Shown: positions 43 to 45,228 of the stretch, one piece after another
How positions within the stretch are numbered: the stretch's first letter is position 1
How the letters are laid out: every line of letters begins with the position of its first letter
Virus record (IMG/VR): IMGVR_UViG_2693429668_000006
Origin: a virus
Lineage: Duplodnaviria > Heunggongvirae > Uroviricota > Caudoviricetes
DNA length: 64,000 bases
Direction: 5' to 3' (one strand)
Notes under the pieces: generated by a model
What the model saw: the letters and a program-made list of their open reading frames with translations, nothing else
The model's database searches: none
What the model was told of the DNA's origin: nothing
Position numbers and translations under genes: made by a program

Positions 43-198
43 TTAGTCTCCAGGATTCCCGGGGCGGTTCACTCTCTCAAATATGGAAACGTCTTCTATT
101 CCTCGAAGAATGGCTAACATTTTGACCAGTTCATTAGCATCCATTTCTTCGAATAAGGCGTTTTGTTCATCAGCTATCGCTTTGCATTTCTTGCACAT
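43..198 (-). CDS. small hypothetical protein (51 aa, CKKCK motif), below ORF-track size cutoff
   Basis: ATG at 198 preceded by the conserved translation-initiation context (GGAAAAACACATG) and class-B motif; stop at 43-45. Confidence 0.3.
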   Translation of the reverse strand: MCKKCKAIADEQNALFEEMDANELVKMLAILRGIEDVSIFERVNRPGNPGD

Positions 199-214
199 GT
201 GTTTTTCCTAATGC

Positions 215-235
215 TTAAACAAGTTGTTTTCTTAT
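215..235 (-). promoter_or_regulatory. class-B palindromic motif TTAAACAAGTTGTTTTCTTAT (candidate operator/promoter)
   Basis: one of 7 near-identical copies 20-45 nt upstream of minus-strand start codons. Confidence 0.4.
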
Positions 236-495
236 TGGCTTTATTGTGATGTGGCATAAAAGGGGAGCAAGCTAAACGTAAAGGTGCAAACTCTCTATTT
301 CGGTCAACGAAACACAAGGGCCATTTGGCCCTTGTCATTAACACGTTGCTTTACGGACTAGCGGATAAGCGAAGTAGATCGCCAGACCAATGAGGACGCC
401 ATCAGAAATGACAGACATCATCTTTCCCGTAAAATCCACCAACACCGCTATCACCAGAAGAGCAATGACGGTCACAAGCCGGAATCTCTCAAGCA

Positions 496-921
496 TTAGA
501 GATAAGCATCCAGTGACAACTGAAGCGCCTGGGCGATCTTTTTCAGCGCCTGCTCTTCTGGTTCATCAATGCCGTCCTGGTCGGCAATATCAAGGCACAG
601 ACACAGTACATCTACTGCATCATCAGTCCCGGCCACATCCGCCAGCTCACGTAAAGCCTGGGCATTAGCACGGCGCGGTGAGGCTTCGTATTGAGCGCGG
701 ATATTGGCGCTCATCTGGGCAATCTCACCAGCAAAAGGAGAAAATGCAGGCAGAGCTGCAATTGTTTTCTCAAGAATGGAAATTTCTTTTGCATCGCATG
801 TACCGTTGGCATAGGAGATCATGTACCCGCCCCACACGGTGGCTTCAACCGCATCACGGTTCTCCATTTTTTTGACTTCGATAACAGCTTTACGAGTTTT
901 CTTTTTGAAGAAACCTAACAT
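496..921 (-). CDS. hypothetical protein (141 aa); weak TerB-like resemblance in acidic C-terminal part
   Basis: ORF with conserved initiation context at 921; motif DQDGIDEPEE; class-B motif upstream. Confidence 0.45.
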   Translation of the reverse strand: MLGFFKKKTRKAVIEVKKMENRDAVEATVWGGYMISYANGTCDAKEISILEKTIAALPAFSPFAGEIAQMSANIRAQYEASPRRANAQALRELADVAGTDDAVDVLCLCLDIADQDGIDEPEEQALKKIAQALQLSLDAYL

Positions 922-945
922 GTGTTTTCCTTTTGCTATTTGTCA

Positions 946-961
946 AAACAAATTGTTTTCT
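946..961 (-). promoter_or_regulatory. class-B palindromic motif AAAACAAATTGTTTTCT
   Basis: AAACAA/TTGTTT inverted repeat upstream of start at 921. Confidence 0.4.
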
Positions 962-1014
962 GGTTACATAAATTGCTTACGCAAAGACGGTCAATGCATA
1001 TGCACTAACAACCG

Positions 1015-1203
1015 TCAGAAATAACCAAGTACCGAACCGACTGGAAAAATAAAAATCCCAACTACACGAGCCAAGGTCATGCCAGCCTGAAACTGGAGAT
1101 CACCTGAGCAAACGAGTTTTATAATGTTGGATACCCAACCGGCGGCCATGAGAGCCAGAATTGCCAGCCAAATTTTCCCAAAGTGATTTGAAAGCCAGTT
1201 CAT
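1015..1203 (-). CDS. small membrane protein (62 aa)
   Basis: hydrophobic ORF, two predicted TM segments. Confidence 0.4.
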   Translation of the reverse strand: MNWLSNHFGKIWLAILALMAAGWVSNIIKLVCSGDLQFQAGMTLARVVGIFIFPVGSVLGYF

Positions 1204-1212
1204 ACAACCACC

Positions 1213-1707
1213 TTAGTCACAACATGATCCTGAGTAACTGGATGAACTTGAGGTATCGCATCCACCGTCATCCCATCCAGAGTGACAGGACGCTCTACTG
1301 GAGTGGTGGTAATTGTCGTCGACGGAGGTGTGGTGATGGATGAACCCGGCATCAAAAGGCTCTGGCCGGCTGGAACGGCTACCGTCGCCAGTGAAACTAT
1401 AATGAGAACGTAGGCCATTGGTTTCAGCCTCTTTCTTTGAAAATTTTCCATTCGAACTGTCCTTGTTGTTTTTCTCCTTCACTAAAGGCCGTGTACTTTT
1501 CGCTTCGCGTGAAGAACCAGAGGCAACAATCGCCCCCACGTTCGCAACAACTGACGCTTGATTATCTAAACGTTCATTCAGCAACCGAACGGTAGTCTCT
1601 AGTTCATCAAGACGTGACATAACACGACCGCTAAACAATTCGGCCAAAATTTGACGTAAAGAACGAGGACGTTTAGTTGCAGAAGTGAAATAGGTTTGAC
1701 GTGCCAT
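1213..1707 (-). CDS. hypothetical protein; N-terminal ~100 aa look coding, 3-prime extent uncertain (overlaps alternative-frame ORF 1200-1451 with signal-peptide-like start)
   Basis: ORF track; basic/coiled N-terminus; low-complexity C-terminus suggests mis-extended frame. Confidence 0.35.
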   Translation of the reverse strand: MARQTYFTSATKRPRSLRQILAELFSGRVMSRLDELETTVRLLNERLDNQASVVANVGAIVASGSSREAKSTRPLVKEKNNKDSSNGKFSKKEAETNGLRSHYSFTGDGSRSSRPEPFDAGFIHHHTSVDDNYHHSSRASCHSGWDDGGCDTSSSSSYSGSCCD

Positions 1708-1855
1708 GTGGACTCCATCCAGTGTCAGAAAGAGTTGCGGCTGGCGATCGCCAGCCGCCTTTCTCGTTCCATCCTGGAACTGTGTCTTACCGACACATTG
1801 TCATCCTGACGCTGATAAGATACATGATTTAAAATGATAGGTAAACACTTACTTA

Positions 1856-2446
1856 CTACTTGTTATAAACAAAACCAATATCTTTCTTGTGAGGCATATC
1901 TGCTGCTGAAAAAGCTGCGATCTTCGCGAGTCGATCACATATTTCATTTTCACGATGCCCGGCGTGACCTTTAACCCACTTCCAGCGAACATTATGTCGA
2001 CTTGCGGCCTCATCCAGACGCTTCCACAGATCAACATTCTTTACCGGTTTTTTGTCAGAAGTCATCCATCCATTGCGTTTCCACCATTTCATCCACTGTG
2101 TCATGCCGTTTTTCAGATACTGGCTATCAGAGTACAAAATAACGTTGCATGGATATTTCAAACGCTCCAGCCCGATAAGTGCCCCCATCATCTCCATGCG
2201 GTTATTGGTGGTGCTATGAAAACCATCTGAGAACTCGCGTTCCTCACCACCATACTGGAGAACTATACCGTAACCGCCCGGGCCACCCGGATTTTTAAGG
2301 CAAGAGCCATCACTGAAGATTTTCACGGTTTTAAGCTGGGGATTGAACTCTACGACAGGCGTTGTGGAATTGGTGCGGGGAGAATTTTTGTTTTTGTCAT
2401 TTTTGCGAGTTTTTGCTTGCGATCGGGCTGGTGTCTTCGTCGTCAT
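1856..2446 (-). CDS. rnhA: ribonuclease HI
   Basis: RNase H domain motifs (FSDGSC..., ...[14 protein letters not shown]); ATG at 2446 with GGAG RBS; longer track ORF start rejected. Confidence 0.85.
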
Positions 2447-3031
2447 ATAAACTCCTGAATCAAGCGCCGCGCCGATTTTTTTTCCTCGCGCGTGCGCACA
2501 CGCGTGCGTGTTAATAATTATTAAAATAAACAAATTACTTCCCAGAACAGGTTTTTATAAACCTGAACTGAACGAACGAAGTGAGTGAAGTTCACCTCGA
2601 ACGAAGTGAGAGGTTGTCTTTTCAGGTAATACTCTCCCAGGGAGGTGAGTACAAAATTTCCTCACCAACCTGGTCGTTTCATAACCTGAAAAGTTATGAC
2701 CTAAGTCTACTGCCAGCTTAGGCTTGGGAAGTTATGGATGACAGCACCCCAGAACCGAGATCTTCCCACACTTTATGAAGGGGAGTACTGGATTCAACCT
2801 CTCGAAACACCCCAGACTCGACAATCATAAAGTGACCCTTGTCTCTGCTCACTTTGGTTCCCCCTTCCCCAACCCCTAAACGGTGCCGGTTCTACGCTGG
2901 TAGTGAGCTTTTTTAAACCTGACGCCAGTGACGCTTACCCCCACCCATCAGGTCGAGCCTCCAATCTACGACTGGAAACTATCAGATCTTAGCACTTACA
3001 ATTCACTTTATGAATAGTTTGTACTTATCTA

Positions 3032-3286
3032 TCATTTCGATTGATTATTTTTTCGACCATGTAGTTGAACATTCAAGGCAAACACCTCGTTGATCAACTC
3101 ACCTAAAAGCTGTTCAACAAGTTCGCGATGCTCCCCAAGATGCAAGCACTTAATTGCCCATTCGTACAAGTTGAAAGCCTGCTCACGATCTTTCATCATT
3201 TCACGAGCCTGGGCCAGAAAATCGCTCTCTACGAGCGCAACGACATTAGTCGGGTATGACATGTTGGTTTCCTTAAAGTGGTTCAT
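3032..3286 (-). CDS. hypothetical protein (84 aa)
   Basis: ORF track, same strand as neighbours. Confidence 0.4.
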   Translation of the reverse strand: MNHFKETNMSYPTNVVALVESDFLAQAREMMKDREQAFNLYEWAIKCLHLGEHRELVEQLLGELINEVFALNVQLHGRKNNQSK

Positions 3287-3368
3287 AAAATCGATTTTAA
3301 AGCGTCTGGGAAGGGGTTCTAGTGGATTCTGTAGTGGTGTTCAGGTCTGGGAGTCTCTGATATAAAAC

Positions 3369-3427
3369 AGCCTGCTTCCGTATATTAATAATTAATATGT
3401 AGTTATTTATATATACAGAAGCAGGCT
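3369..3427 (-). terminator. composite hairpin element: 10-bp GC stem (AGCCTGCTTC/GAAGCAGGCT) around 39-nt AT-rich loop, T-rich tail on minus strand
   Basis: perfect inverted repeat immediately downstream of the stop of gene 3449-4042; second copy at 53541-53599. Confidence 0.5.
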
Positions 3428-3448
3428 AATTACAGACGCCAGAACAAA

Positions 3449-4042
3449 CTAAGCAGCCTTCTTTGATGGTCTTTTTTTCCTGATCACATTCGCAGGATCA
3501 TACCCTCCCAGACTTTTCATGACGTCCAAAGGGATCTTGCTTATAGAGTGCCCAGCGTCCTGACAGAATCCTCGAAAAACAACGAGCATACTGCCACCTG
3601 GGTTGATGTTTACTTCTACCTGACCCAGATTTACGTCAGGCTCGACAAACGCTACGCGGCCACCAGACAGAATAATCGTCTCATTCGCACACTCTGTTGC
3701 ACGCTCATACCACTTTGTATCTAGGGATTGAGGAATTAGCATCACTGTTGTAACTCCACGAGCCTGCTCACGTATAGCCGCATCAATCCAGGGGGAGATT
3801 TTGGAGTAGGGTGGATTGAGGAAGGCAATTGTACCTGGCTGTCCCCATTCAGATTTCAAAGCATCACGCTCAACGCCTATGAAATTAGGCAGCTTTGCAT
3901 TGTCCTTGTTGCAGGCAACGTCAACATCAAATGTCACTCCAAGATAACGTTGAATGGCAGAAAACAGCCAGTCAGGTGTTCTCCAGAGGTCACGAAGAGA
4001 GTTGTCGCGCTTTCGCTGTTTGATTTTTTCGGCTGCAATCAT
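3449..4042 (-). CDS. DNA N6-adenine methyltransferase (phage Dam-like family)
   Basis: NPPY catalytic motif (FLNPPYS), WRTPDWLF N-terminal motif typical of phage N6A-MTases. Confidence 0.65.
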   Translation of the reverse strand: MIAAEKIKQRKRDNSLRDLWRTPDWLFSAIQRYLGVTFDVDVACNKDNAKLPNFIGVERDALKSEWGQPGTIAFLNPPYSKISPWIDAAIREQARGVTTVMLIPQSLDTKWYERATECANETIILSGGRVAFVEPDVNLGQVEVNINPGGSMLVVFRGFCQDAGHSISKIPLDVMKSLGGYDPANVIRKKRPSKKAA

Positions 4043-4052
4043 CTTCTTTCTC

Positions 4053-4073
4053 GATAGGTAAGTATATACCTAT
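4053..4073 (-). promoter_or_regulatory. class-A palindromic motif GATAGGTAAGTATATACCTAT
   Basis: recurrent motif family (13 copies) just upstream of minus-strand genes. Confidence 0.45.
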
Positions 4074-4225
4074 TTTTGCATTTGATTTTATGTCTGGCAA
4101 TCAAATAAAACGCGCCAGAAATGCAAACGAGAAGCTCTCTGGCGCGTTTTTGTGGTGCTGGGTATGTGATTGGCTTACCCAGTACTATAAAGCTCTCTAT
4201 GGGCTTTATTTTAAGTAGGGGAACG

Positions 4226-5035
4226 TCATCCAATAGTGTACTCCGCGACAAACTTCTTAACGATCGGTGATTCTTCGTTCAATGTTAGATTTCCACCGTC
4301 TCTAACGGCAATTCCTGTCGCTGGAAATACAGCCATCATTTGCCCAGCCTGAGTTGACGCAGTGTTAAGCGGATACGGTTTTTCTGGATTGCTCATTAAA
4401 GCAATCTTAATACTATTACTTGTAGCCTTCTTTTCTGTGAGAAGGTGTCTCATGGAAATTACCGTGTAAACACTAATATCTGGACCTCCGCTAAACCAAT
4501 TAAGAAGGTTTAATATCTTATCCTTTGCTTTGACAGGCGCGTTATCGTAAGCGTCTAAGAAAATATCTTTTTCTAAGCCCGCTTTATTGAAAAACGAATC
4601 ATCTTTATCACTTAAAGTAAAACGAGGACCTCTTGCAGTACGCGCTTTTTTATTTGTATTGCTATCATTTGACTGTTGAACTTTTAATTCATCATTAACC
4701 TCAACACACTCTTCAACCTCAATAAATCCCAATTGTTCTGGCTCGTTTTCGGCAGCTTCAACACTTTCAGCGTTAATTACGTTTATAGGCTCATGCGCTA
4801 ACTCCAACTCATTTAAAGCAGAGCTGAAATCACCTGCTTTTTCTTCATTGAACAGTTCTTCGGCAACATCATCAGAACTCATGGCTACGCCAGCATCTAG
4901 GCCGAGCAGCAGATCGTCAATATCATCAGTATTTTCAACCTGTGCAGCTTTTTTTACTGGTTCATCAAGTGATTGCAACATGGCTGTCAGCTCGTCCAGA
5001 TCATCATTTGTCATTACATTTTCAACCGAACTCAT
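4226..5035 (-). CDS. acidic hypothetical protein (269 aa)
   Basis: ORF track; Asp/Glu-rich N-terminal half. Confidence 0.5.
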   Translation of the reverse strand: MSSVENVMTNDDLDELTAMLQSLDEPVKKAAQVENTDDIDDLLLGLDAGVAMSSDDVAEELFNEEKAGDFSSALNELELAHEPINVINAESVEAAENEPEQLGFIEVEECVEVNDELKVQQSNDSNTNKKARTARGPRFTLSDKDDSFFNKAGLEKDIFLDAYDNAPVKAKDKILNLLNWFSGGPDISVYTVISMRHLLTEKKATSNSIKIALMSNPEKPYPLNTASTQAGQMMAVFPATGIAVRDGGNLTLNEESPIVKKFVAEYTIG

Positions 5036-5193
5036 GTAAGTCTCCTTCTGTTTGGTTACATTTGCGTTTCGATGGCTGCATTTTGACTAAACCTATCAGG
5101 CGGAAAAGTATTAAATACAGGCAGAAAATGATTGAAAGGCGACTGTTCTTTAAAAAAAAGCCTACTTTAAACTTTTTAAAGTAGGCTTTTGTT

Positions 5194-5751
5194 TTACACA
5201 ATTTCAGAGGGTAATTTAAAAAATCCGTACTTATTACGTGCCTTAAAGAAGCATTGCATCATTAAGTTTGTGTCATATAAGGCACTATGTGCTTTGGCAT
5301 GATCGTATATAAAGCCAAGAGAGAAGGCCAACTCTTCAAGGCGGGGACGTTTACCGTCTTCTGTGGCCCACAATCCCGATAACATAGTATCTATAACAGG
5401 AACTTCTGGCAGTCTTACTCCATACCCTGAAAACTCGTGTCGAATAAATGGTATATCAAATGCTTCGCCGTTATGAGCAACCCACACACTACATGCCCCC
5501 ATATAAGCGCCAATTTCGCTGGCATGATTTGACAACAAAGGTTCAGCTGCGAGCTGTTCCAATGAAATGCCATGAACGGCTTGAGCTTTCGGATCTATGT
5601 TTCTGCGAGGGTTAAAACGCATCTCCAGACTATCAATATGTCTCTGTGTCTCCAGTTCATAGCGGGTAATTGCGATTTCAATAATTTTATGACCAGCAAG
5701 GAAATCCAGTCCCGTAGACTCGATATCGATGCCTGCAACAATCGTTGTCAT
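5194..5751 (-). CDS. DEDDh 3-prime-5-prime exonuclease (DnaQ-like)
   Basis: Exo I GIDIESTGL, Exo II HNGEAFDIPF, Exo III HSALYDT motifs. Confidence 0.7.
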   Translation of the reverse strand: MTTIVAGIDIESTGLDFLAGHKIIEIAITRYELETQRHIDSLEMRFNPRRNIDPKAQAVHGISLEQLAAEPLLSNHASEIGAYMGACSVWVAHNGEAFDIPFIRHEFSGYGVRLPEVPVIDTMLSGLWATEDGKRPRLEELAFSLGFIYDHAKAHSALYDTNLMMQCFFKARNKYGFFKLPSEIV

Positions 5752-5760
5752 CAGAACTCC

Positions 5761-6180
5761 TTACAACTTCTTAGCGCCCTTAAGTAGTGCGCTACGTACA
5801 AATTGAGCCGCTTTTTTCAAAGTTTCTTCACTGGTTTCACAGACAATCGGATCTTTCCACTTACCTGACGCAGTGTTGAGAATATTGATTTGGTTGCTAT
5901 CCAGACAAACAGAGATATAAAGCACCGTGCCACCAGCCAGCATCAAATGCATAGGAAACAGAGGCTTTTTACTGCCTTCACTGAACTGAGACATGGCGAT
6001 GTTAATGGCTTCACCTACTTGTGCGCCAACAAGCCCCTGCGCAGTTTCGAATATGGCACGAATAGCCAGACGAGCCTCTCGATCGCTCATAAGCGACCGG
6101 GAATGTTCGTCCGCTACACGAATCAAAGCCTCTGTTGTTTTCCGATCCAGTTCATCTTCAAGCAACATTTCACTAAACAT
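5761..6180 (-). CDS. hypothetical protein (139 aa)
   Basis: ORF track. Confidence 0.45.
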   Translation of the reverse strand: MFSEMLLEDELDRKTTEALIRVADEHSRSLMSDREARLAIRAIFETAQGLVGAQVGEAINIAMSQFSEGSKKPLFPMHLMLAGGTVLYISVCLDSNQINILNTASGKWKDPIVCETSEETLKKAAQFVRSALLKGAKKL

Positions 6181-33900: not shown

Positions 33901-34469
33901 ATCTGGTCGTAGAATGGGGTAGGGTGCGGATAAACCACGCTATAGAAGTTGTCTTTCCCGCCCGCTGTAATCAGTGAGCTTATGATTTTTGCAAAATCGT
34001 TGCGTTGGAACACGCTACCGATGTCGGAAGTGAGCAGGATGATGTTGCCTTTGGCATATGTAGAAACCAACTGTTCGAGCGAGAGACGCGGTACAAAGTA
34101 GAACTGTTCTCGTGTGTTGGCCACCGTCATTAGTTCGCAGATGTCGCGATATCCTTGCTCATTTTTAATTAGAGCGGTAAACGAGTAGTTACGTCCCCGC
34201 TCTAATGATTCCATACATCTCATAGATTCTTTAGCAAGTTTAGCCCGGTGCTCGTATGTGGGATCATCAACGATATTTAGTTTCACACCACAAATAACCG
34301 CCATGTCGTCACCAGCGGCACGTTGTAGTGGAATAACACTCGCAATATTCATGCTATCTGCTGAAATTACAGCGGTGTAGCCAGCTTCTCTGGCAATCTT
34401 CACCGCGTTTTCTGCTTTTAGAGCCGACTCCCCAAGTGAGAAGTCAGTTCGAACCATCAGTGCTTTCAT
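30951..34469 (-). CDS. dnaE: DNA polymerase III alpha subunit (DnaE-type, PHP domain N-terminus)
   Basis: 1172 aa; Pol III alpha core (GPGRGSSAGSLVAWCIGITNVDP), degenerate PHP N-terminus; ATG at 34467-34469. Confidence 0.8.
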   Translation of the reverse strand: MKALMVRTDFSLGESALKAENAVKIAREAGYTAVISADSMNIASVIPLQRAAGDDMAVICGVKLNIVDDPTYEHRAKLAKESMRCMESLERGRNYSFTALIKNEQGYRDICELMTVANTREQFYFVPRLSLEQLVSTYAKGNIILLTSDIGSVFQRNDFAKIISSLITAGGKDNFYSVVYPHPTPFYDQINVRAMKVASALKIEPVAFYPAYYESIDDADIKDIAHMVTNNIKIDQPHRLRIPHQRDNAVNGRRHLLEALKAFSVRMDVPVTAAMASTTQDSIIEACTWRWHELPPALPKMADDEPATLMKLAVAGLRKRLTTKEFGYTPPASENRVYVERLKYEMDTLTRLGFCGYFLMVRDLMNHSRETGIPVGPGRGSSAGSLVAWCIGITNVDPIRHGLLFERFINPERLDLPDADLDFSQARRHEVIEYLNERYGEDYVAGIPNFTYLGAASALRDTARIYGVESADMAVSKELKNAEDDSLPLEELREQLASLDKYATKYPDAFNAACKLQSLMRGFGRHAAGMIVAGVPLTERTPVERRGDARCIAFDKRYCEAMGLIKLDVLGLATLDLLDSAKRYIKENTGEDINLDAISLEDRKVLDGFAAGYTQGVFQLESGPMRKLLKDLGGGIEPMSFKTVVATTALFRPGPIQSGMLDDYVSVAKGFMTPESLHPVLDELTAETNGVILYQEQTMNATRLLAGFTMAEADAVRSAIGKKNMEKMKSMGEKFIVQAQAGWIDVELEDGTTQRIHRAEHFKCEDGTLKTVEEALEHGAKLPINAVRVTASHPGLSEMKAKEIWTAFEKNGAYQFNKSHSVSYSLISYQSMWLKTHYPAEFFAAALTILGEDKHQGLVKDALTYGIRVLPPDVNVSSNRIEIRTLEDGSQALYAPFSAVKGCSENGCQAIMRAREKVGGKFESVAQFDEAVEKRACNSRVRESLHKVGAFASIEPGSLPATDPERLRDQAELMGNLIIDAVKASRPFEMNPKRSAEINVLMTRMAAEMGLGEELIRPTIGIKPKIMIILDNANGNDARTGYFMENGYDDFKAKLLTVGDLRMGDLYVTGVCKKVKDKEKDYTKDEIGQFTDFMREEINLVRPTYILTCGSRSTALFNNKSKPSDLIGRKEYFPELDATVFYGFNPNILYFRPEEGERLEAILADIAETINK

Positions 34470-38400: not shown

Positions 38401-38651
38401 TCAATCAATCCATTCTAACTTATACTATGGTAAGGAATACTACTAAAATCTATATCAATACTGAATACATTCATATCATATGCAAGTTGATTTTCTTACC
38501 TGTTTTGGGCTAATTTTTCTCCGTGCAATGGCCTTTAACCGGTCTTTTAAGTGCCTATCGAAAAAAATGATAATAGCTTTACAACCCTAACCTTTGATGT
38601 AATATCGGTAAGCACTTACCAGAGAGAATTGAACGCGCAAAGGTTGTAACC

Positions 38652-39038
38652 ATGTCTGATAACAAGATTGAATTTATAGAAAGTCGCTACGCTGCTTTTA
38701 TCGCAGGGTTGATTGAATCCTCACCTATGAGCCAGGCCCAGATAGCCAAAACAATTGGGTATAAAAACGCCAACAACCTTTCTTTAATTAAAAGCGGCAA
38801 AATTCCTTTGCCTATCGATAAGGTTCGTCCGCTGGCGCTGGCACTGGGCATTGAGCCAAGTCGTCTTATGATGATGGTGCTGGAAGAACGCCAACCCGAA
38901 CTCGCAGCATTTTTATACAAAGAAGGCACTGCTCCTCTTAACGAGGACGAAAAACAGGTTCTTGCTGCATATAACGAGCGATTCGGTAAAGAGAAAGGCG
39001 CATCACAAAAGGTTGTTGAGGCCATAAAGTCTCTATGA
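38652..39038 (+). CDS. HTH DNA-binding regulator (XRE-like)
   Basis: helix-turn-helix segment SQAQIAKTIGYKNANNLSLIKSGK. Confidence 0.5.
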   Translation: MSDNKIEFIESRYAAFIAGLIESSPMSQAQIAKTIGYKNANNLSLIKSGKIPLPIDKVRPLALALGIEPSRLMMMVLEERQPELAAFLYKEGTAPLNEDEKQVLAAYNERFGKEKGASQKVVEAIKSL

Positions 39039-40136
39039 AAAATTTACACGAATAAGCTCTGTTGATAGACGATCTCCCTTAAATTTGTGGTCAATTTCGT
39101 CTAAATCCGGTTGCTCTACGATTGATGCGATGTACGTCGAGAAACTTTCTAAGGCGTCTCGCATCTCGTCCATATAATCGTGCCGGTCGTAGACCCGATC
39201 TATCCCCTCAAGACTGTGGTTCATGATTTTACGTGATACCTCCTGGCTTATGCCTAATGCTGGGAAGTAACTACGCGCAGTACGGCGCAAATCTCGGGGT
39301 GTAAATGGCTCAAGCTCCATCAGTTCTGGTCGTTCCAGAATACGACGTAATGCCTGGGCTATTGCCACTTTAGACATAGGAAGGTCTTTCCCGATTTTTT
39401 TATTCGAAGGCACGAGCCACTGGCTGTCTTTACCATATTCGAACAACTCTTCAATACAAGTGCGCATTAATGAGCTTAAAGGCAGAGAATGCTCACGGGC
39501 AGATTTGTTCCTCTTGCCTTGATTCCAAACCCCACGCTTAAGATTGAACTCACTTTTTTTAGCCCGCAGTACTTCGTCAGGTCGTCTTGCGGATACAAGA
39601 CATAGCCTGGCCGCCCATTTTGTACCAGCGCACACATTGAAGTAGTCCCATATATTCCAGAACACCCATACCTCTGCGTCGGTCAGCTTCCGCTCGCGAG
39701 GTGTGGGCTTTGCGCCACCGGCAACTTTGTTAAGTGACATATCGTTTAACGGTGACACGTCTATCATCCCCTGGAAGGCGCACCAGCTAAGGAACTGCTT
39801 CATCAGAGAGAAAACGCGGCGGCCCATAACAATTTTGCCATCCAGTATTAGTGGGTTGACCAGTTGGTTCACCATGAACCTATTAATGTCACTTACTTTT
39901 ACATCGGCAATGTGCGGCAAAACATGTATCAAAATACAATGAACAGCGATCTCTGGCCGACGTCTGGTTATCAGCAGAGATAAGCGAGTGAATAACATGA
40001 ATGCGTCCGAGAATCTCATGTCATTGCTGACCTGGGAGATCATAACGGCCTGCATTTGAGATGCTCTTTCGAGATACTCTATCGCCTCTTTTGAGGTGTT
40101 CTCCGCAGCGCGTGCTCTGTCAAAGCTATTTTTCAT
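39033..40136 (-). CDS. tyrosine recombinase / integrase family protein
   Basis: C-terminal catalytic region TPRDLRRTARSY (box II) and NHSLEGIDRVYDRH (His...Tyr); ARRPDEV box I-like. Confidence 0.65.
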   Translation of the reverse strand: MKNSFDRARAAENTSKEAIEYLERASQMQAVMISQVSNDMRFSDAFMLFTRLSLLITRRRPEIAVHCILIHVLPHIADVKVSDINRFMVNQLVNPLILDGKIVMGRRVFSLMKQFLSWCAFQGMIDVSPLNDMSLNKVAGGAKPTPRERKLTDAEVWVFWNIWDYFNVCAGTKWAARLCLVSARRPDEVLRAKKSEFNLKRGVWNQGKRNKSAREHSLPLSSLMRTCIEELFEYGKDSQWLVPSNKKIGKDLPMSKVAIAQALRRILERPELMELEPFTPRDLRRTARSYFPALGISQEVSRKIMNHSLEGIDRVYDRHDYMDEMRDALESFSTYIASIVEQPDLDEIDHKFKGDRLSTELIRVNFS

Positions 40137-40346
40137 ATGACAATCACCGAGTTACGCCGATGCACTGTATAAGTAAACAGTATATTAGGCATAGATTCTT
40201 ATAGGATCAAGAGTAAAAGTAACTCATTTTCAGCAATGATTCCATACATAGTAGGTATGGAATCATTTAGCCGTTGTTTTTTGAATTTTAAGGGAACCAA
40301 GCGTGAGTTTGGTGGGAACAAAAACGGCTCCTGTGAGCCGTTAAAA

Positions 40347-40592
40347 TTAGAGAGTGGTGACGTATGCAGCCAGTTCTGTGTATCCGCCAATCGGTTGGCC
40401 ATCGATCAGTACCTGGGGGATAGTCTCTACCGGTTTGCCAACAATTTCGCTAAGTTTTTCCTTATCGATACCGGCAGTGGTGATGTCGATGTACTCATAA
40501 TCACCATAGCCGTGTCCCTTTAGTTGTTTCGCCAGCTCGACCGCACGTTTGCAATATGAGCAGTTATCTCGTCCGTAGATAACGATAGTCAT
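40347..40592 (-). CDS. glutaredoxin-like protein (NrdC/NrdH-like)
   Basis: IYGRDNCSYC redox motif, thioredoxin-fold length, ...DGQPIGGY. Confidence 0.7.
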   Translation of the reverse strand: MTIVIYGRDNCSYCKRAVELAKQLKGHGYGDYEYIDITTAGIDKEKLSEIVGKPVETIPQVLIDGQPIGGYTELAAYVTTL

Positions 40593-40648
40593 GTTTACCT
40601 CATAATAATTATGTGTTACTTAACCAGAAAATAAATATTACTATAAAA

Positions 40649-40670
40649 GATAGGTAAGTAAAAACCTATT
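40649..40670 (-). promoter_or_regulatory. class-A palindromic motif GATAGGTAAGTAAAAACCTATT
   Basis: upstream of glutaredoxin gene. Confidence 0.45.
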
Positions 40671-40731
40671 TAATGTCTGCAATACATCGTAAACTTGCCT
40701 GTTAATCACAACTTAATTTAGTTAATATTTA

Positions 40732-42060
40732 ATGCAACTAACAATGGTAAGTACGAGAGCATACATGCCTGTTTTTATTTCTGTTGCAATTCTAATGTTT
40801 TCCATAATAATTTTGTTTTTAGGTTTACTACTTGAGCCATTTCAAGATTGGAAGGTTACAGACCAAATTGCTGTATTGAGTAGTTTTATAACGACAGCGG
40901 CTTTTTGTGCAACAGCGTGGAACGCCTATGAAGCAAGAAAAAGTGCAAAGGCAGCACTGGAGGCCGTTAGGATAACTACCGATTCATTGATTGAGATGAG
41001 AAAAAATTCTTTCAAAGAATGGTTTGACACTTTATTAAATCAGCATGATGAGTTGTACAATAATGTCATACCAATCATTGAACAGACAAAAAAACAATTT
41101 AATAAAAATGAAATGCATTCGTTTTTTTATCCATTGGTAAGAAAGCATGAGGTTATTCAGTACATAAAACATATTACCAATATATTAGTCTATGTAGATA
41201 ACCGATTTTACATAGATGGAAATTGTTTTGATGAAAAAATGGAATATATTATTCAATTGAGTGGAAAAATACCACCGCAAATGAAGTTGGTTATTGCAGT
41301 TTTTGGATTGGACATCGATTCTCGTGAACCGCTGGATTCAAAAAAACTGTATGCTTTATTAAATAAATATGATTTTTTCAAAGATGAAATATTCTTTGAT
41401 GATGCTTATTCAAGCATGCCTGAAGTAGAGCTATTTATAAAGGATAGATTTGATAAAATATTTAAAACCAAGATGTTAAAATACTTTTGGAACGTGATTA
41501 AGGAATATTATTCTCAAGTTGAAGTCAAAGAAATCTGGGTGGTTCGTCGTCCGCAAGTTGCTTCATCGGTATTAATGAACTACCAAACACCATTATCTGG
41601 TTTAATTGATGATTATTTTAAAAATTTGCCAAATGAGGTAAAGAGCATTTTTGATGAAGCACTAAAAAAAGCTAATGATAGTGTTACGTCTATTGATGAC
41701 TATATTCATCGTTTGATCGGTTGCAGAGTCGCGTCGATTTCAGAGCATGTCCATTTCGAAAGTGAAATACTGAGTAGTGAAAAGGATGTGAAGGATATGA
41801 TTAAAAATTACATAGAGCAAAGAAAAACTGGAAAAAATGCGGTAAATCTTGGGCAGTTATATTTCTCGAGTGAGTCAGATGTAATTACAGGTGATCAGTT
41901 GAGTGATGCGATCGATGAATATGAGAAAAAGTTGGCACTTATGGCAATAAACGATAATGATGATAGTGATAACCTATTGTGCCATATCTATATTAAATCA
42001 TGTGAGATAGTTGATGAATATAAGCGTGAAACATTAAAATTGGGCGAGTACGCACAATAG
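40732..42060 (+). CDS. AT-rich membrane-anchored hypothetical protein (442 aa)
   Basis: N-terminal TM helix (and possible second), large K/E/D-rich soluble domain, markedly AT-rich codon usage, opposite strand to backbone. Confidence 0.55.
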   Translation: MQLTMVSTRAYMPVFISVAILMFSIIILFLGLLLEPFQDWKVTDQIAVLSSFITTAAFCATAWNAYEARKSAKAALEAVRITTDSLIEMRKNSFKEWFDTLLNQHDELYNNVIPIIEQTKKQFNKNEMHSFFYPLVRKHEVIQYIKHITNILVYVDNRFYIDGNCFDEKMEYIIQLSGKIPPQMKLVIAVFGLDIDSREPLDSKKLYALLNKYDFFKDEIFFDDAYSSMPEVELFIKDRFDKIFKTKMLKYFWNVIKEYYSQVEVKEIWVVRRPQVASSVLMNYQTPLSGLIDDYFKNLPNEVKSIFDEALKKANDSVTSIDDYIHRLIGCRVASISEHVHFESEILSSEKDVKDMIKNYIEQRKTGKNAVNLGQLYFSSESDVITGDQLSDAIDEYEKKLALMAINDNDDSDNLLCHIYIKSCEIVDEYKRETLKLGEYAQ

Positions 42061-42311
42061 GTTGTGCAGATTCGAAGCCTCTTTAAATTTTGCGCTGAAA
42101 ATTGTTATTTTACGGTAAGTAACGCTGTTTTCAGCGCATAAATGTCAGTGAATAATTTGATGCTTGCTGTAACGATGGTACGCTACGTAAAATCCGATAT
42201 TTATGAGACTGATTGCAGGTAAGGACTTACATAGCGCACAAAAATTGCTGATACCAGATGCAATATATGTTTAATGTCAAATTTTAGATAGGGGCGTATA
42301 CGCCCCTGTCA

Positions 42312-42866
42312 TTATTTTATTTTATCTTCTTCTAAACGAGAAAATTTAAATTGTTTATCGGTGATGGTGAGTAGTGTTACACCTTCCTTTTCGTGTAAAA
42401 GACCGGCACCGTTTGACACCATAATCAATCTATCCTTCCCTCGAAAGATTTCATAATATTTACCAGCTCCACAAGTTTTAGTTTCAATACAGTCCATGCC
42501 AGATACTGCTTCTCTGTTAAAAACACGATCTTTTGTAGCAACGGGTTTTCCGTACTCCTTTGTCAGCATTTCACTTATCTGGATGAATGTATACTTACCA
42601 ACATTACTGGTTAATGACATTTCGACTTTTCCGTCGATCAGGTTGCCATTCGTATGCGGTTCTTTTTCAGTCGGACTATTTTTATCTTGAAGAATAAACA
42701 CTTCAACATTTTGTGTTAGCTTCTTGAATTGGGCTTTATAATTTTGTTCAAGTTCACTTTTATCTTTGCCTATTAACGTTAATTCATCTATTTCAGATTC
42801 GTTACACCCTGTTAGTGTTAACGCAATTATTAGAGATGCGAAAATATTGAGATGGCACTTCTTCAT
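42312..42866 (-). CDS. lipoprotein (184 aa)
   Basis: signal peptide with lipobox LTGC; AT-rich. Confidence 0.55.
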   Translation of the reverse strand: MKKCHLNIFASLIIALTLTGCNESEIDELTLIGKDKSELEQNYKAQFKKLTQNVEVFILQDKNSPTEKEPHTNGNLIDGKVEMSLTSNVGKYTFIQISEMLTKEYGKPVATKDRVFNREAVSGMDCIETKTCGAGKYYEIFRGKDRLIMVSNGAGLLHEKEGVTLLTITDKQFKFSRLEEDKIK

Positions 42867-42982
42867 TAATTTGTCTCCATGTTTAACTGCTGCGATCTAA
42901 TCAGGAACATGAAGGCAGTCTAACGCTGCCTCGGATCAAAGCGATAAAACGATACGTGAATATAACTAAGTGTCAACAAATC

Positions 42983-43005
42983 AAAAAAGGGGCCGAAGCC
43001 CCTTT
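42983..43005 (-). terminator. rho-independent terminator downstream of tRNA cluster
   Basis: hairpin GGGGC-CGAA-GCCCC with A6 on plus strand (T6 on minus strand). Confidence 0.6.
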
Positions 43006-43159
43006 GAATTTTGCGCTGAAAAAAGTGTTGCTAGGATGTTAGCAAGCTATGGTTAAGAACGTCTGCCGTAATTGTCTATCACAGCGTTGAGCGGTCTGGT
43101 TTATGTTAGCGGAGTCTTAATCTGGTTGATTAAAAGGCCAAACCGCTCAACGCTGTGTC

Positions 43160-43246
43160 TGGCGGAGAGTAATGGAATCGAACCATCATCGTTTGCACAA
43201 TGGGACGGTTTTCAAGACCGCTTGAGCACCATGCTCCCTACTCTCC
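43160..43246 (-). tRNA. tRNA-Ser (anticodon UGA)
   Basis: 87-nt cloverleaf with encoded CCA, anticodon loop CUUGAAA, long variable arm, T-loop TTCGATT. Confidence 0.8.
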
Positions 43247-43540
43247 AATTGTGTTGTGTGCTCCGTTTCGTGGAGCTAACGGCGGGTGATCAGACCGCAC
43301 CAGGTTGGACGTATTTCAGCGTTATGCTGTTGCAAGAGAGCCAAATTGTGATGGCCGGTGCTGATCTCCGGCATTGCCTACGTTAGCGGCCTTCAGGCAG
43401 TTCATCCGCTTGCTTCTACGTCGCACATCAGCCTGTGCATTCACCACAATGTTGAGAACACTGGTTGTCACGCTGCAACGCAACATTATATTCATAAATT
43501 GGGATATGAACCCGTTACGCCAATGTTCTCAATATTATGT

Positions 43541-43616
43541 TGGTGCCGGTTAACGGACTTGAACCGCTGGCCATTTGCTTACAAAGCGACTGCTCTACCA
43601 ACTGAGCTAAACCGGC
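43541..43616 (-). tRNA. tRNA-Thr (anticodon UGU), two mismatches in anticodon stem
   Basis: 76 nt; acceptor/D/T arms canonical; loop TTTGTAA; possibly pseudo-tRNA. Confidence 0.6.
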
Positions 43617-43620
43617 AATT

Positions 43621-43707
43621 TGGTGGGGAGTGATGGAGTCGAACCACCCGAGTCGCAATGACAGTAGATTTACAGTCTACACCGCTACCTCTACGGACTA
43701 ACTCCCC
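43621..43707 (-). tRNA. tRNA-Tyr (anticodon GUA)
   Basis: 87 nt; anticodon arm GTAGA-CTGTAAA-TCTAC; long variable arm. Confidence 0.8.
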
Positions 43708-43712
43708 TAAAT

Positions 43713-43787
43713 TGGCGATGGTGGGTGGATTCGAACCACCGATCAGTTGGTTAACAGCCAACTGCTCTACCGCTGAGCTACACCATC
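43713..43787 (-). tRNA. tRNA-Asn (anticodon GUU)
   Basis: 75 nt; anticodon arm GTTGG-CTGTTAA-CCAAC; T-arm GGTGG-TTCGAAT-CCACC. Confidence 0.85.
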
Positions 43788-44545
43788 AATTCAGCACTGC
43801 CAGTATTTATTACTCAGCAGTGCCAATCGCGGCGGTGTTAGTTTTTGCCAATAAACGCACCGCTACTTGCACTTTTCGTTAGTGCCAGACGTTTTCGACT
43901 TCGCTCAATAGAAGGCAAAATCTTTAAGTAGATGATGTTTCTGAGGACAGCACCTACTTTGTAATTTACATAATGCGGTGTATGGAATCATTTGTTGTGA
44001 AAACAGGCACCAATGGCAACAGTGGTTAAACCTACACAACAATCCTGTCTTCACAACGTTGAGGCCACTACCCCGATTGAATGTTTGCCCAACATGTTAC
44101 ATATCAACGTTCGCCAGTATCTCTGTGAATAGAACCTTAGAATTGATAAAAATGTAATGGCCTCAACGTTGTGTGCTGGCTAACCATACCAGCCGGGCTA
44201 CGTCGCCGCTTTTTAACCCAGTATAAACGACATAATTGAACAAAATGACGTAACAGGATGGGCGGTCAGTGGCTAAGAATCCGGGAGTGATATGGAGTTG
44301 GAAATATACCGACCGCCCATTCTGTTACTTCATCGGAGAGGGCATGGGTGGTGCCGTATCATGCCCTCTCCTGCGTTCTGCAATCACACTCGCTCAGTGT
44401 GTCCCATTTCGGTAACGAGGCTGGAAACTGACCTCGCTGGTGTTTGGCTTATTAGGCTACTGCCAGATAGACTTCTTCGTTTGCACTTGTATTTAAGTTC
44501 AAACAGTCGCGTCTCAACGAAAACAAAGCCATCTTATACATAAAA

Positions 44546-44576: not shown

Positions 44577-44867
44577 TTATTCGGTTGTGACTTTTTTGAT
44601 CATGGCCACTCTACGATCAGGTGTTCTTGTGATGGTTGCAGTGAATCGTTTCGCTTGGATAGTAATGGTTTCGTTCTCCTTAAGTTGCCCGTAGCGAGTT
44701 TCCACCAGGGTGCCAAGACGCCACAGGCAATCATCGATACGTTTATGACTGGCAAATTTAATCAGCAGCAGTTTTACGACTAACTGACCTACGTAAAAGG
44801 CGAATCCGACTCCAGTCGCGATGAAATAGTGTACCAACCACCAGTCCCAAGAAGTTAAATTGCTCAT
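44577..44867 (-). CDS. membrane protein (96 aa)
   Basis: N-terminal hydrophobic helices. Confidence 0.4.
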   Translation of the reverse strand: MSNLTSWDWWLVHYFIATGVGFAFYVGQLVVKLLLIKFASHKRIDDCLWRLGTLVETRYGQLKENETITIQAKRFTATITRTPDRRVAMIKKVTTE

Positions 44868-45012
44868 TTTCTCACCTTTGTTTCATGAATTACCCGATAC
44901 ACACGCTTTCCGATGCACAGTGTTTTGGTTTTAAGTTCCTGCTTAATTAAGTCACGACAGATGCCGAAGCCGATAAGGAAACCAGCCATAAAAGCTAATG
45001 AGATGTATGGAA

Positions 45013-45228
45013 TCATTCTAACGCTCCTGATTCTACTAATTGCTGTAGCAATACTTTCCCTTTATCAGTTAACTGGTAGTTGGCCGAGCACCACGTTTCA
45101 GAAACGTTTGCAACCAACCCTAACCGCTCTAACTTAGCCCGCGTTTTAGGCTTCCAGTACTCAGGGAACTCCGGCCACTTACTGATTTCATGAAGCGTTT
45201 CCTTCTCCCGCTTACTTAATACGATCAT
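45013..45228 (-). CDS. hypothetical protein (71 aa)
   Basis: ORF track. Confidence 0.4.
   Translation of the reverse strand: MIVLSKREKETLHEISKWPEFPEYWKPKTRAKLERLGLVANVSETWCSANYQLTDKGKVLLQQLVESGALE

Follow-up and report, generated by a model that had tools for sequence, protein, structure and literature searches.

The DNA described here is a 64,000-nucleotide stretch (the window) of the IMG/VR virus record IMGVR_UViG_2693429668_000006 (Caudoviricetes), and it represents an SSU5/pHCM2-like phage-plasmid of Escherichia coli. It carries a gene, here called int (39033..40136, minus strand), for a 367-aa tyrosine recombinase without an arm-binding domain, and upstream of this gene a perfect 33-bp palindrome (40235..40267), in which two 13-bp arms surround a 7-bp spacer and which is a candidate recombination (core) site. 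We propose that Int and this site form a Cre/loxP-like system of multimer resolution for the plasmid prophage, drawn from a different recombinase lineage, and we give this reading a probability of roughly 0.55. It is preferred because int belongs to the core of the element and is never chromosomal, because Int lacks an arm-binding domain, and because the adjoining site is conserved and co-varies with the protein. We infer binding, catalysis at the site, the role in multimer resolution and control by LexA from sequence comparisons.

In the mechanism that we propose, the 33-bp palindrome would be the substrate of Int, with each 13-bp arm bound by one Int monomer. After synapsis of two sites, strands would be exchanged over the 7-bp asymmetric spacer via Tyr316, and direct repeats of the site in a plasmid multimer would be resolved to give monomers, so that the low-copy prophage plasmid could be partitioned. 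As a by-product, recombination with co-resident relatives bearing a cognate site would leave a mosaic junction beside the slot of variable cargo that adjoins the site. In the SSU5-like lineage LexA would repress int and DNA damage would induce it, and the neighboring helix-turn-helix (HTH) gene, convergent with int, would have a separate function, probably that of a prophage repressor with its own dispersed operators.

A conserved inverted repeat upstream of int

The palindrome, AATGATTCCATAC-ATAGTAG-GTATGGAATCATT, lies 98 bp upstream of the int start codon and was singled out by shuffles, conservation and its linkage to int. It is unique within the window and was matched in 0 of 100 shuffles. 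No arm-type repeats were seen near this core site. We considered the palindrome as a terminator and rejected this, as the terminator scan did not flag it, its arms are sequence-invariant and its loop is variable.

We then surveyed int homologues at 62 loci, with one genome per species taken from the GTDB species genomes. The genera covered include Kluyvera, Yersinia pestis (pMT1), Buttiauxella, Chimaeribacter, Pantoea, Rahnella, Erwinia, Ewingella, Hafnia, Xenorhabdus, Photorhabdus and Biostraticola. At all 62 loci the int homologue is preceded, 44-250 bp upstream, by an inverted repeat with 7 bp between its arms, and at 56 of them the 11-nt arms are perfectly symmetric. Two classes of arm can be told apart. 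Class 1, with GATTCCATAC on both arms, accompanies Int proteins at least 57% identical to the query, and class 2, with GACTCCAGAC on both arms (site form GTGACTCCAGAC-N7-GTCTGGAGTCAC), accompanies proteins 45-52% identical to it; five loci have mixed arms. The two arm classes follow the protein clade, and thus three positions have changed in both arms together. Paired changes of this kind are what symmetric binding by a co-evolving Int should give.

Among IMG/VR sequences, a site of either arm class was found at 109 loci. The int gene is 41-100 bp away at 105 of these loci, and three of the remaining four have the site close to the locus end. Identical arms are combined with 15 different AT-rich spacers in this set, and spacers differ even among close relatives; the spacer length is 7 bp at all loci examined. 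Such diversity between identical arms would be expected if the site recombines with its own copies and not with a fixed chromosomal attB. Among 5,426 complete E. coli genomes, 252 have the site, each of them a single time, and 252 is also the count of genomes with int; the site is on plasmids only, none of the 504 site matches being on a chromosome. The palindrome arms are essentially intact at every locus, and one conserved arm is never joined to unrelated DNA. With no constraint on the spacer and an unsplit palindrome, there is therefore no sign of a fixed chromosomal attB or of integration.

A lambda/P4-type recombinase without the arm-binding domain

The assignment of int draws on its open reading frame (ORF), which has an ATG start, on the match to PF00589, on an alignment with 24 homologues, and on an AlphaFold2 (AF2) model and its Foldseek matches. 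The earlier note had described a 367-aa protein with integrase-type motifs, and this description is correct: the ORF contains all the motifs quoted there (present as SARRPDEV, TPRDLRRT and NHSLEGIDRVYDRH), and searches assign the protein to Pfam Phage_integrase (PF00589; E 2.9e-10, 40.6 bits, cut-off 27.1) and to PHROG phrog_1 "integrase" (E 4.8e-47). The catalytic set consists of R185, K211, R281 (at the His-II position), R284, H307 and Y316. R185, R284 and Y316 are invariant among the 25 sequences of the family alignment, and conservation is at least 90% at K211 and H307. In a profile alignment, R185, R281, R284, H307 and Y316 stand opposite R212, H308, R311, H333 and Y342 of lambda Int, with the catalytic Lys one column off; the catalytic Tyr and Arg, on whose alignment the earlier note had let its assignment depend, are thus aligned with the integrase family (R185/R284/Y316 opposite R212/R311/Y342). 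The residue at the His-II position is Arg (PRDLRRT, R281) throughout the 19-member armless clade, so that the HxxR motif is absent from it, whereas the arm-bearing distant relatives keep His at this position (HDLRRT).

The Pfam scan gave no match of Int to the arm-binding domain PF13356 (DUF4102). PF13356 is present in distant relatives (E 1e-36 to 1e-20), which have 400-460 aa, whereas members of the int clade are ~365 aa long and miss the N-terminal block. The central domain PF22022, recorded for many of the homologues, scores 22.8 bits against int (cut-off 27), and the P4/CP4-57-type model PRK09692 scores 33.9 bits (cut-off 434). The AF2 model has a mean predicted local distance difference test score (pLDDT) of 85.9 and two domains, preceded by short helices in residues 1-40. 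Beyond residue 40 it superposes on lambda Int 75-356 with a template-modelling (TM) score of 0.72-0.74, normalised to the target. Lambda Int 75-356 is also the best Foldseek match, followed by Tn1549 Int and XerH, and the Foldseek probability is 1.00 for lambda Int, Tn1549 Int, XerH and IntI. Cre chains come far lower (E 0.05-0.13 vs 1e-6 for lambda Int), and Cre was not among the matches in a family-profile search of the PDB. A phmmer search of the Int and HTH proteins against PDB sequences gave no match; the relatives came from profile and fold searches.

Int is thus a P4/lambda-type recombinase that lost its arm-binding domain, because its fold and profiles are nearest to lambda Int and its clade is without the N-terminal block; it has a simple, Cre/Xer-like architecture and lies outside those clades. 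The earlier note had offered a Cre/XerD-like multimer-resolution recombinase as one of two options. Multimer resolution is the best-supported reading here, on indirect evidence, but the protein belongs to neither the Cre nor the Xer clade and has its relatives among the lambda/P4-type recombinases.

Distribution of int and its site

The DNA of int and the HTH gene was found at 254 places in 252 of the 5,426 E. coli genomes; all 254 are on plasmids and none is chromosomal. At least 80% of this DNA is held by 217 genomes, as compared with 219 genomes that have the backbone CobS-like gene, and int is therefore core backbone. The earlier note had allowed for absence of the gene from relatives, and these counts show that it is kept. 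The neighbors CobT, a 70-aa ORF, HTH and int are retained in Escherichia, Citrobacter, Kluyvera, Yersinia, Buttiauxella, Klebsiella and Xenorhabdus elements, and int is also present in relatives with entirely different cargo. Tyrosine recombinases have been listed among the persistent genes of the SSU5 supergroup (Pfeifer et al., PMC7969092).

The SSU5 backbone (HTH, CobT, CobS and DnaE) is found at only 7 of the 62 homologue loci. At the remaining loci, int and its site lie amid ordinary genes, such as those for a GGDEF protein, H-NS, a TonB-dependent receptor and a chemoreceptor. Several of these loci are on named large plasmids (pPANA1, pA and pC3_1), and the pair occurs alone, without phage backbone genes, on large Pantoea, Rahnella and Erwinia plasmids. 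Retention of int and its site on several kinds of large low-copy replicon fits a role in plasmid maintenance. Homologues with intact sites were also seen on very large contigs, chromosome or megaplasmid, namely a 905-kb contig of Biostraticola tofi and several 0.5-0.7-Mb contigs of Rahnella and Pantoea.

The distribution bears on the possibility that Int acts as a genuine integrase and inserts a nested island, or the element as a whole, in a chromosomal target such as a tRNA gene. We consider this highly improbable. The nearest families by sequence and fold, lambda Int and the P4/CP4-57-type PRK09692, are integrases, database entries name the protein "site-specific integrase", and some homologues are on the 0.5-0.9 Mb contigs that may be chromosome or megaplasmid. 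However, no copy of the gene (0/254) or of the site (0/504) is on an E. coli chromosome, the palindrome is never split, Int has no arm-binding domain, and the spacers vary among close relatives. The nested island that was the second option of the earlier note is at odds with backbone neighbors that stay constant across seven genera, in which int is syntenic, and with the presence of int beside entirely different cargo. Its link to tRNA genes fares no better. Four tRNA genes do lie about 3 kb away, as had been stated (confirmed by two methods; the closest is 3,024 bp from the int start codon), but the site is neither in nor near a tRNA gene, the tRNA genes are intact in the window, and partial duplications of tRNA ends were sought and none was found. 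Phage-plasmids are regarded as typically without true integrases, and their chromosomal relics as rare accidents that are not driven by integrases (Pfeifer and colleagues, PMC12977533).

Int might also cyclise the infecting linear genome, beside or in place of resolving multimers. Cyclisation of the infecting genome is the second role of Cre in P1. Like P1, the element forms virions (PMC9928086). We regard this as quite unlikely, since the site is ~46 kb from the terminase genes in a 111.6-kb relative (NZ_CP083480.1) and cyclisation is impossible for the megaplasmid homologues.

Homology breaks at the distal edge of the site

It is also evident that the site marks a boundary of homology. Similarity of the window to phage Cyrano, a Citrobacter element and another E. 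coli element ends at 40269-40285, that is, 2-18 bp past the palindrome, and restarts at ~42982, before tRNA-Ser. These breaks delimit a variable cargo slot (40268..42981) that starts at the distal edge of the site. Among 315 pairs of genome loci aligned up to the site, 253 end 0-60 bp past the distal edge, 6 end at 60-200 bp, none ends at 200-1000 bp, and 56 run on for more than 1 kb. On the opposite side, 120 of these 253 pairs stay homologous for over 200 bp beyond the int stop codon. The Kluyvera and Y. pestis elements, for instance, share 94% identity over 6 kb on the int side and are unrelated from 3 bp past the site. Breaks of this kind would be expected from site-specific exchange between co-resident elements. 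In P1 crosses, loxP is a recombination hotspot.

The content of the slot varies among elements. In the window it holds grx, a low-GC gene for a 442-aa protein and a 184-aa ORF. Cyrano has the moron CYRAN_43 in this place, which is expressed at 723 times background (PMC9928086), one relative has a YafO toxin module, and the Citrobacter element has Ail/Lom and PhoH-like genes. Yersinia pestis pMT1 carries the F1-capsule operon caf1R-caf1M-caf1A-caf1 there. On a pMT1-like contig of Y. pestis NCTC5923, the caf1 operon is at 113-5241 and the site at ~5871-5901 (locus coordinates), ~630 bp apart.

The breaks admit a second explanation, that the site serves in evolution chiefly as a platform for docking or exchange, at which Int fuses cognate-site replicons or captures circular DNA and thereby loads cargo, loosely as in intI/attI and including induction by the SOS response. 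Synteny that breaks 0-60 bp past the distal edge in many lineages while the int side stays collinear would agree with it, and so would the unrelated cargo (the CYRAN_43 moron, the YafO module, the Ail/Lom and PhoH-like genes and the caf1 operon), the LexA-like box at the int promoter described below, and the occurrence of one arm class on both phage-plasmids and unrelated Chimaeribacter contigs. Yet there is exactly one full site per replicon in the 252 E. coli genomes and per IMG/VR locus, with neither arrays nor a second site that would bound the cargo, nor any site-like scars within it. The far end of the variable region (~42982, before tRNA-Ser) is an ordinary homology boundary, and exchange among co-resident relatives is expected as a side effect of a resolution system. 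We therefore hold a platform to be unlikely. A wider form of the same idea, which we also find rather doubtful, would make int and its site more than a resolvase: an SOS-inducible docking point common to SSU5-like phage-plasmids and unrelated large Enterobacterales plasmids, where fusion swaps the DNA beyond the site and where the half-sites described below exert a new long-range control. If this docking were true, it would be the entry route for the caf1 operon, toxin-antitoxin modules and highly expressed morons. One 198-kb cointegrate of an IncC and an SSU5-like plasmid (NZ_CP146657.1) is uninformative on fusion at the site, the surroundings of int being ordinary backbone.

A LexA-like box at the int promoter

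A palindrome resembling a LexA box, CACTGTATAAGTAAACAGTA (CTGT-N8-ACAG, 16 of 20 consensus matches), was detected by a scan with shuffles at 40163..40182, between the putative -10 element and the int start codon. It is the sole match of at least 16/20 in the 64-kb window, as compared with a shuffle mean of 0.015. A box with 14-18 of 20 matches is present at the equivalent position in eight SSU5-like lineages and absent from the megaplasmid homologues. The putative sigma-70-like promoter of int (40182..40210, minus strand; TTGATC, 17 nt, TAATAT) was read by eye, and its -10 element abuts the box. It matches only 8 of 12 consensus positions and was therefore missed by the consensus scan, which has a threshold of 9/12. 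In the SSU5-like lineage, int appears to be LexA-repressed and hence induced by DNA damage, to judge from the place and conservation of the box.

The 111.6-kb relative NZ_CP083480.1 has one further strong LexA-like box only. This second box (3719-3738 of NZ_CP083480.1, 17/20) is ~19 bp upstream of a gene for a 129-aa S24 family peptidase. With boxes at int and at the S24 peptidase gene, the element would therefore have a small SOS regulon of its own. In plasmid pTIC (MF554642.1), an insertion sequence lies between int and the palindrome (4806-6026, locus coordinates), and the two pieces of the pTIC alignment overlap by 8 bp at window positions 40169-40176, inside the LexA-like box. Since the insertion sequence is within the box, the regulation of int may be altered in pTIC.

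Satellite half-sites

Single copies of the arm occur at three further positions. One half-site (AATGATTCCATAC followed by ATC, an exact 13-mer) lies inside dnaE and antisense to it (34204..34219, plus strand). Another (AATGATTCCATAC followed by ACC) is intergenic, just past the tRNA cluster (43977..43992, minus strand, 13-mer at 43980), and the third (AATGATTCCATAC followed by ATC) lies over the start codon of a 50-aa ORF (44864..45016), at 45002..45017 on the minus strand with the 13-mer at 45005. The third half-site and that in dnaE have a 20-mer in common. No further copies of the 13-mer arm were found elsewhere in the full 111.6-kb relative, in which the half-site at 43977..43992 has a single mismatch.

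The three half-sites are conserved between genera. All three positions are occupied in Citrobacter, Kluyvera and Klebsiella elements, where the flanks have diverged, and some of them are occupied in Yersinia and Buttiauxella, as seen in the 13-kb stretches that were compared. The dnaE half-site is exact in Citrobacter, Kluyvera, Yersinia and Klebsiella despite diverged flanks. Eighty distinct examples give the consensus aTGATTCCATAC with ATC after it, and the half-site 15-mer is ATGATTCCATACATC. All 148 of 148 half-sites are oriented toward the full site, which amounts to only four conserved positions. The three half-sites of the window lie 3.7 to 6 kb from the full site, on both sides. Half-sites are absent from loci with class-2 arms and from the megaplasmid homologues.

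Three ideas about these motifs were tried and rejected. They are not degenerate full sites, as no second arm is recognisable at a spacing of 6-8 nt. A fourth candidate lies within int and has a single mismatch in Citrobacter, Kluyvera, Yersinia and Klebsiella; it overlaps the conserved DVWNQ codons and is lost in the window, with three mismatches there, and it was not counted. Nor does the 13-mer behave as a genome-wide operator like that of P1 C1, for it is absent elsewhere in the 111.6-kb relative and the HTH promoter has a different palindrome. The possibilities left for the half-sites are accessory binding of Int, loosely like TnpI/IRS, or a regulatory use of Int.

The HTH gene and a dispersed operator-like motif

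The gene next to int (38652..39038, plus strand) encodes a putative 128-aa XRE/Cro-type HTH protein, a candidate prophage repressor, as assigned from its ORF, fold and PHROG match. The two genes had been described as divergent, but they run toward each other (convergent, tail to tail) and share 6 nt at their 3′ ends (39033..39038). This layout recurs in Cyrano, another E. coli plasmid, the Citrobacter element and a Klebsiella phage. The XRE-like assignment of the earlier note is supported by fold, while sequence supports it weakly. C.AhdI, 434 Cro and P22 c2 can be superposed on its AF2 model (pLDDT 71.6), with target-normalised TM scores of 0.78-0.80 over ~62 residues, at Foldseek E values of only 0.01-0.09. 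The match to Pfam HTH_19 (E 7.8e-4, 19.7 bits) is under the cut-off of 30.2, and PHROG phrog_8 "transcriptional regulator" is matched at E 1.3e-11. The Pfam scan found no S24 cleavage domain in the protein.

The HTH family forms 55 clusters with identities of 55% or more, almost all of them on contigs no longer than ~116 kb, and from these sequences the family is taken to be confined to the SSU5-like phage-plasmid lineage. An apparent swap of the HTH gene in ~33 E. coli records (int 80% identical) was rejected as such, since the Klebsiella-type HTH protein is homologous at 56% identity. CYRAN_45, the orthologue in Cyrano, carries the annotation "putative repressor" and is expressed at 10 times background in lysogens (PMC9928086).

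The promoter of the HTH gene (38578..38605, plus strand; TTTACA, 16 nt, TAATAT) was found by consensus scan and lies in a block conserved in six lineages. Just downstream of its -10 element is an operator-like palindrome, GGTAAGCACTTACC (38607..38620), recognised by its conservation in E. coli, Citrobacter, Kluyvera, Yersinia, Buttiauxella and Klebsiella. With up to one mismatch allowed, the window holds nine copies of the motif GTAAGNNCTTAC (1.4 expected), of which seven are intergenic. These 12-mers are at 1841, 13609, 23753, 28299, 35948, 38608, 42219, 52802 and 63238, often within a longer TAGGTAAGTACTTACCTA-like palindrome. The pattern suggests, by analogy with P1 C1, that the HTH protein is a prophage repressor with dispersed operators. 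It is apparently not a dedicated regulator of int, because no GTAAGNNCTTAC-type motif is present in the int promoter region.

The arrangement of these elements could also be taken to place Int in an SOS-triggered lytic switch, in which derepressed int transcription would run into the convergent repressor gene (by interference or antisense RNA) and Int might bind the half-sites and alter the expression of replication genes. The 6-nt tail-to-tail overlap, which is conserved in layout and leaves no room for a terminator between the genes, would suit such a switch, as would the HTH protein without an S24 cleavage domain and the presence of only two strong LexA-like boxes in the 111.6-kb relative, one of them at int. 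Moreover, Cyrano is induced 39-fold by ciprofloxacin (PMC9928086). The half-sites co-occur with the LexA-like box, both being found in Enterobacteriaceae SSU5-like elements, and neither was found at the Xenorhabdus/Photorhabdus loci, which keep the HTH partner, or at the megaplasmid loci. The switch is, however, wholly inferential, and neither the conserved catalytic residues nor a perfect recombination-type site would be needed for a purely regulatory role. The megaplasmid homologues have the site but no HTH gene, LexA box or half-sites, and the ancestral function would therefore be recombination. We judge a lytic switch to be distinctly improbable.

Points that weigh against multimer resolution

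Several observations count against the proposed resolution system. The Arg in place of His-II extends across the whole armless clade, whereas the arm-bearing relatives have His. Three conserved half-sites are without explanation under a plain Cre/lox model. The match of the int promoter to consensus is weak (8/12), and a dimer resolvase under SOS control would be unusual. As for the homology breaks, the locus pairs are not phylogenetically independent, and selection that protects int and its site beside a plastic region could alone give sharp breaks. Host XerCD could in principle resolve plasmid dimers instead. Finally, the literature searched held no paper describing the site or a function for the int gene.

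The surrounding DNA and the cargo of the window

The 5.6 kb around int are 100% identical to plasmid pTIC (MF554642.1) and 99% identical to the E. coli plasmid NZ_CP083480.1, and parts of them are 97% identical to Escherichia phage Cyrano (pLF82). The adjoining genes form the SSU5/pHCM2 replication block, with DnaE, a CobS-like AAA ATPase, CobT, ligase, primase and helicase.

Within the cargo slot, grx is at 40347..40592 (minus strand). The gene for the 442-aa protein (40732-42060, plus strand), which has a hydrophobic N-terminal stretch, is missing from most relatives, and GC content falls to 31% at 41-42 kb, where it lies. The sole match of this protein is PHROG 18168 (unknown function), with none in Pfam or PADLOC; a PADLOC scan of the cargo genes gave no defence system. 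The gene for the 184-aa protein (42312..42866) is bracketed by a 29-bp direct repeat, 93% identical (42073-42101 and 42994-43022), and also by a 24-nt inverted repeat (42118-42141 and 43009-43032). These repeats suggest that the gene may have arrived as a discrete insertion.

The tRNA genes, all on the minus strand and each found by two methods including Rfam, are tRNA-Ser (43160-43246), tRNA-Thr (43541-43616), tRNA-Tyr (43621-43707) and tRNA-Asn (43713-43787); the Rfam scan gave these four tRNAs and nothing further. The spacer between tRNA-Ser and tRNA-Thr (43258-43556) shows ~82% identity to the upl/plp region of phage P1 and P1 relatives, and this stretch is therefore common to an unrelated phage-plasmid family. 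Three long hairpin-forming inverted repeats surround the tRNA genes (43080-43157, 43442-43542 and 44052-44173). Their arms are 20-23 nt long and 83-95% complementary, and they look related (CAC..GTTGAG), with no match in Rfam.

Significance and comparison with known systems

SSU5-group phage-plasmids are common in clinical Enterobacteriaceae and were present here in 252 of 5,426 complete E. coli genomes. In the literature that we searched on SSU5-like plasmids, the integrase appears only as an annotation. With a precise 33-bp site assigned to the gene, this vague annotation becomes a directly testable recombination system, and multimer resolution would account for an integrase-like gene in an element that never integrates. 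The site also marks a recurrent mosaic junction beside a slot with virulence and accessory genes, including caf1 of pMT1, and Int with its target is a candidate recombinase pair with a 7-bp spacer, outside the Cre-type tool screens. The LexA-like box and the conserved half-sites could reveal additional regulation.

Among known systems, Cre/loxP of P1, Dre/rox, Vika/vox, Nigri/nox and Panto/pox likewise pair a two-domain tyrosine recombinase of a phage-plasmid or plasmid, without an arm-binding domain, with a site that adjoins the gene, occurs once per replicon and consists of two 13-bp inverted arms around an asymmetric spacer (PMC10250229, PMC4957104). Cre/loxP serves multimer resolution in P1 (PMC7969092), and by analogy the same role would be expected here. 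Unlike these systems, Int is not of the Cre clade, its spacer is 7 bp and not 8, it has Arg for His-II, and a LexA-like box and half-sites are present. Published Cre-type tool screens demanded 8-bp spacers (PMC10250229) and would therefore have missed the site. Panto is a relative of Cre (PMC4957104); Panto/pox and the 2023 Cre-type screen were set aside, as they concern a different family.

By sequence and fold, Int is nearest to lambda Int and the P4/CP4-57-type integrases (PRK09692; PF13356, PF22022 and PF00589). A 7-bp overlap is typical of lambda-type sites. In contrast to those systems, Int is without the N-terminal arm-binding domain, arm-type repeats, chromosomal integration and attL/attR junctions.

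The TnpI/IRS system has an inverted-repeat core, and its extra single binding motifs are accessory sites within ~100 bp of that core. Our site is similar in having an inverted-repeat core plus extra single motifs, but the half-sites are kilobases away on both sides and are missing from the megaplasmid homologues. TnpI of Tn4430 is described as a tyrosine recombinase (PMC2847244) that resolves replicon fusions. With IntI/attI, the system has in common a site immediately upstream of the recombinase gene, variable cargo beyond it and a LexA-like box at the promoter; intI is under SOS control. Unlike integrons, it has no attC-like partner sites and no cassette arrays, with one site per replicon, and in Foldseek the IntI structures match Int less well than lambda Int does. 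ResD/rfsF of F and Rsd/crs of the Salmonella virulence plasmid are tyrosine recombinase systems encoded by large low-copy plasmids; each resolves multimers at a site in cis close by, with a reported architecture different from that of the 13-7-13 site described here. Taken together, these comparisons suggest that Int and its site would be most like Cre/loxP in function and nearest to the lambda/P4-type integrases in descent.

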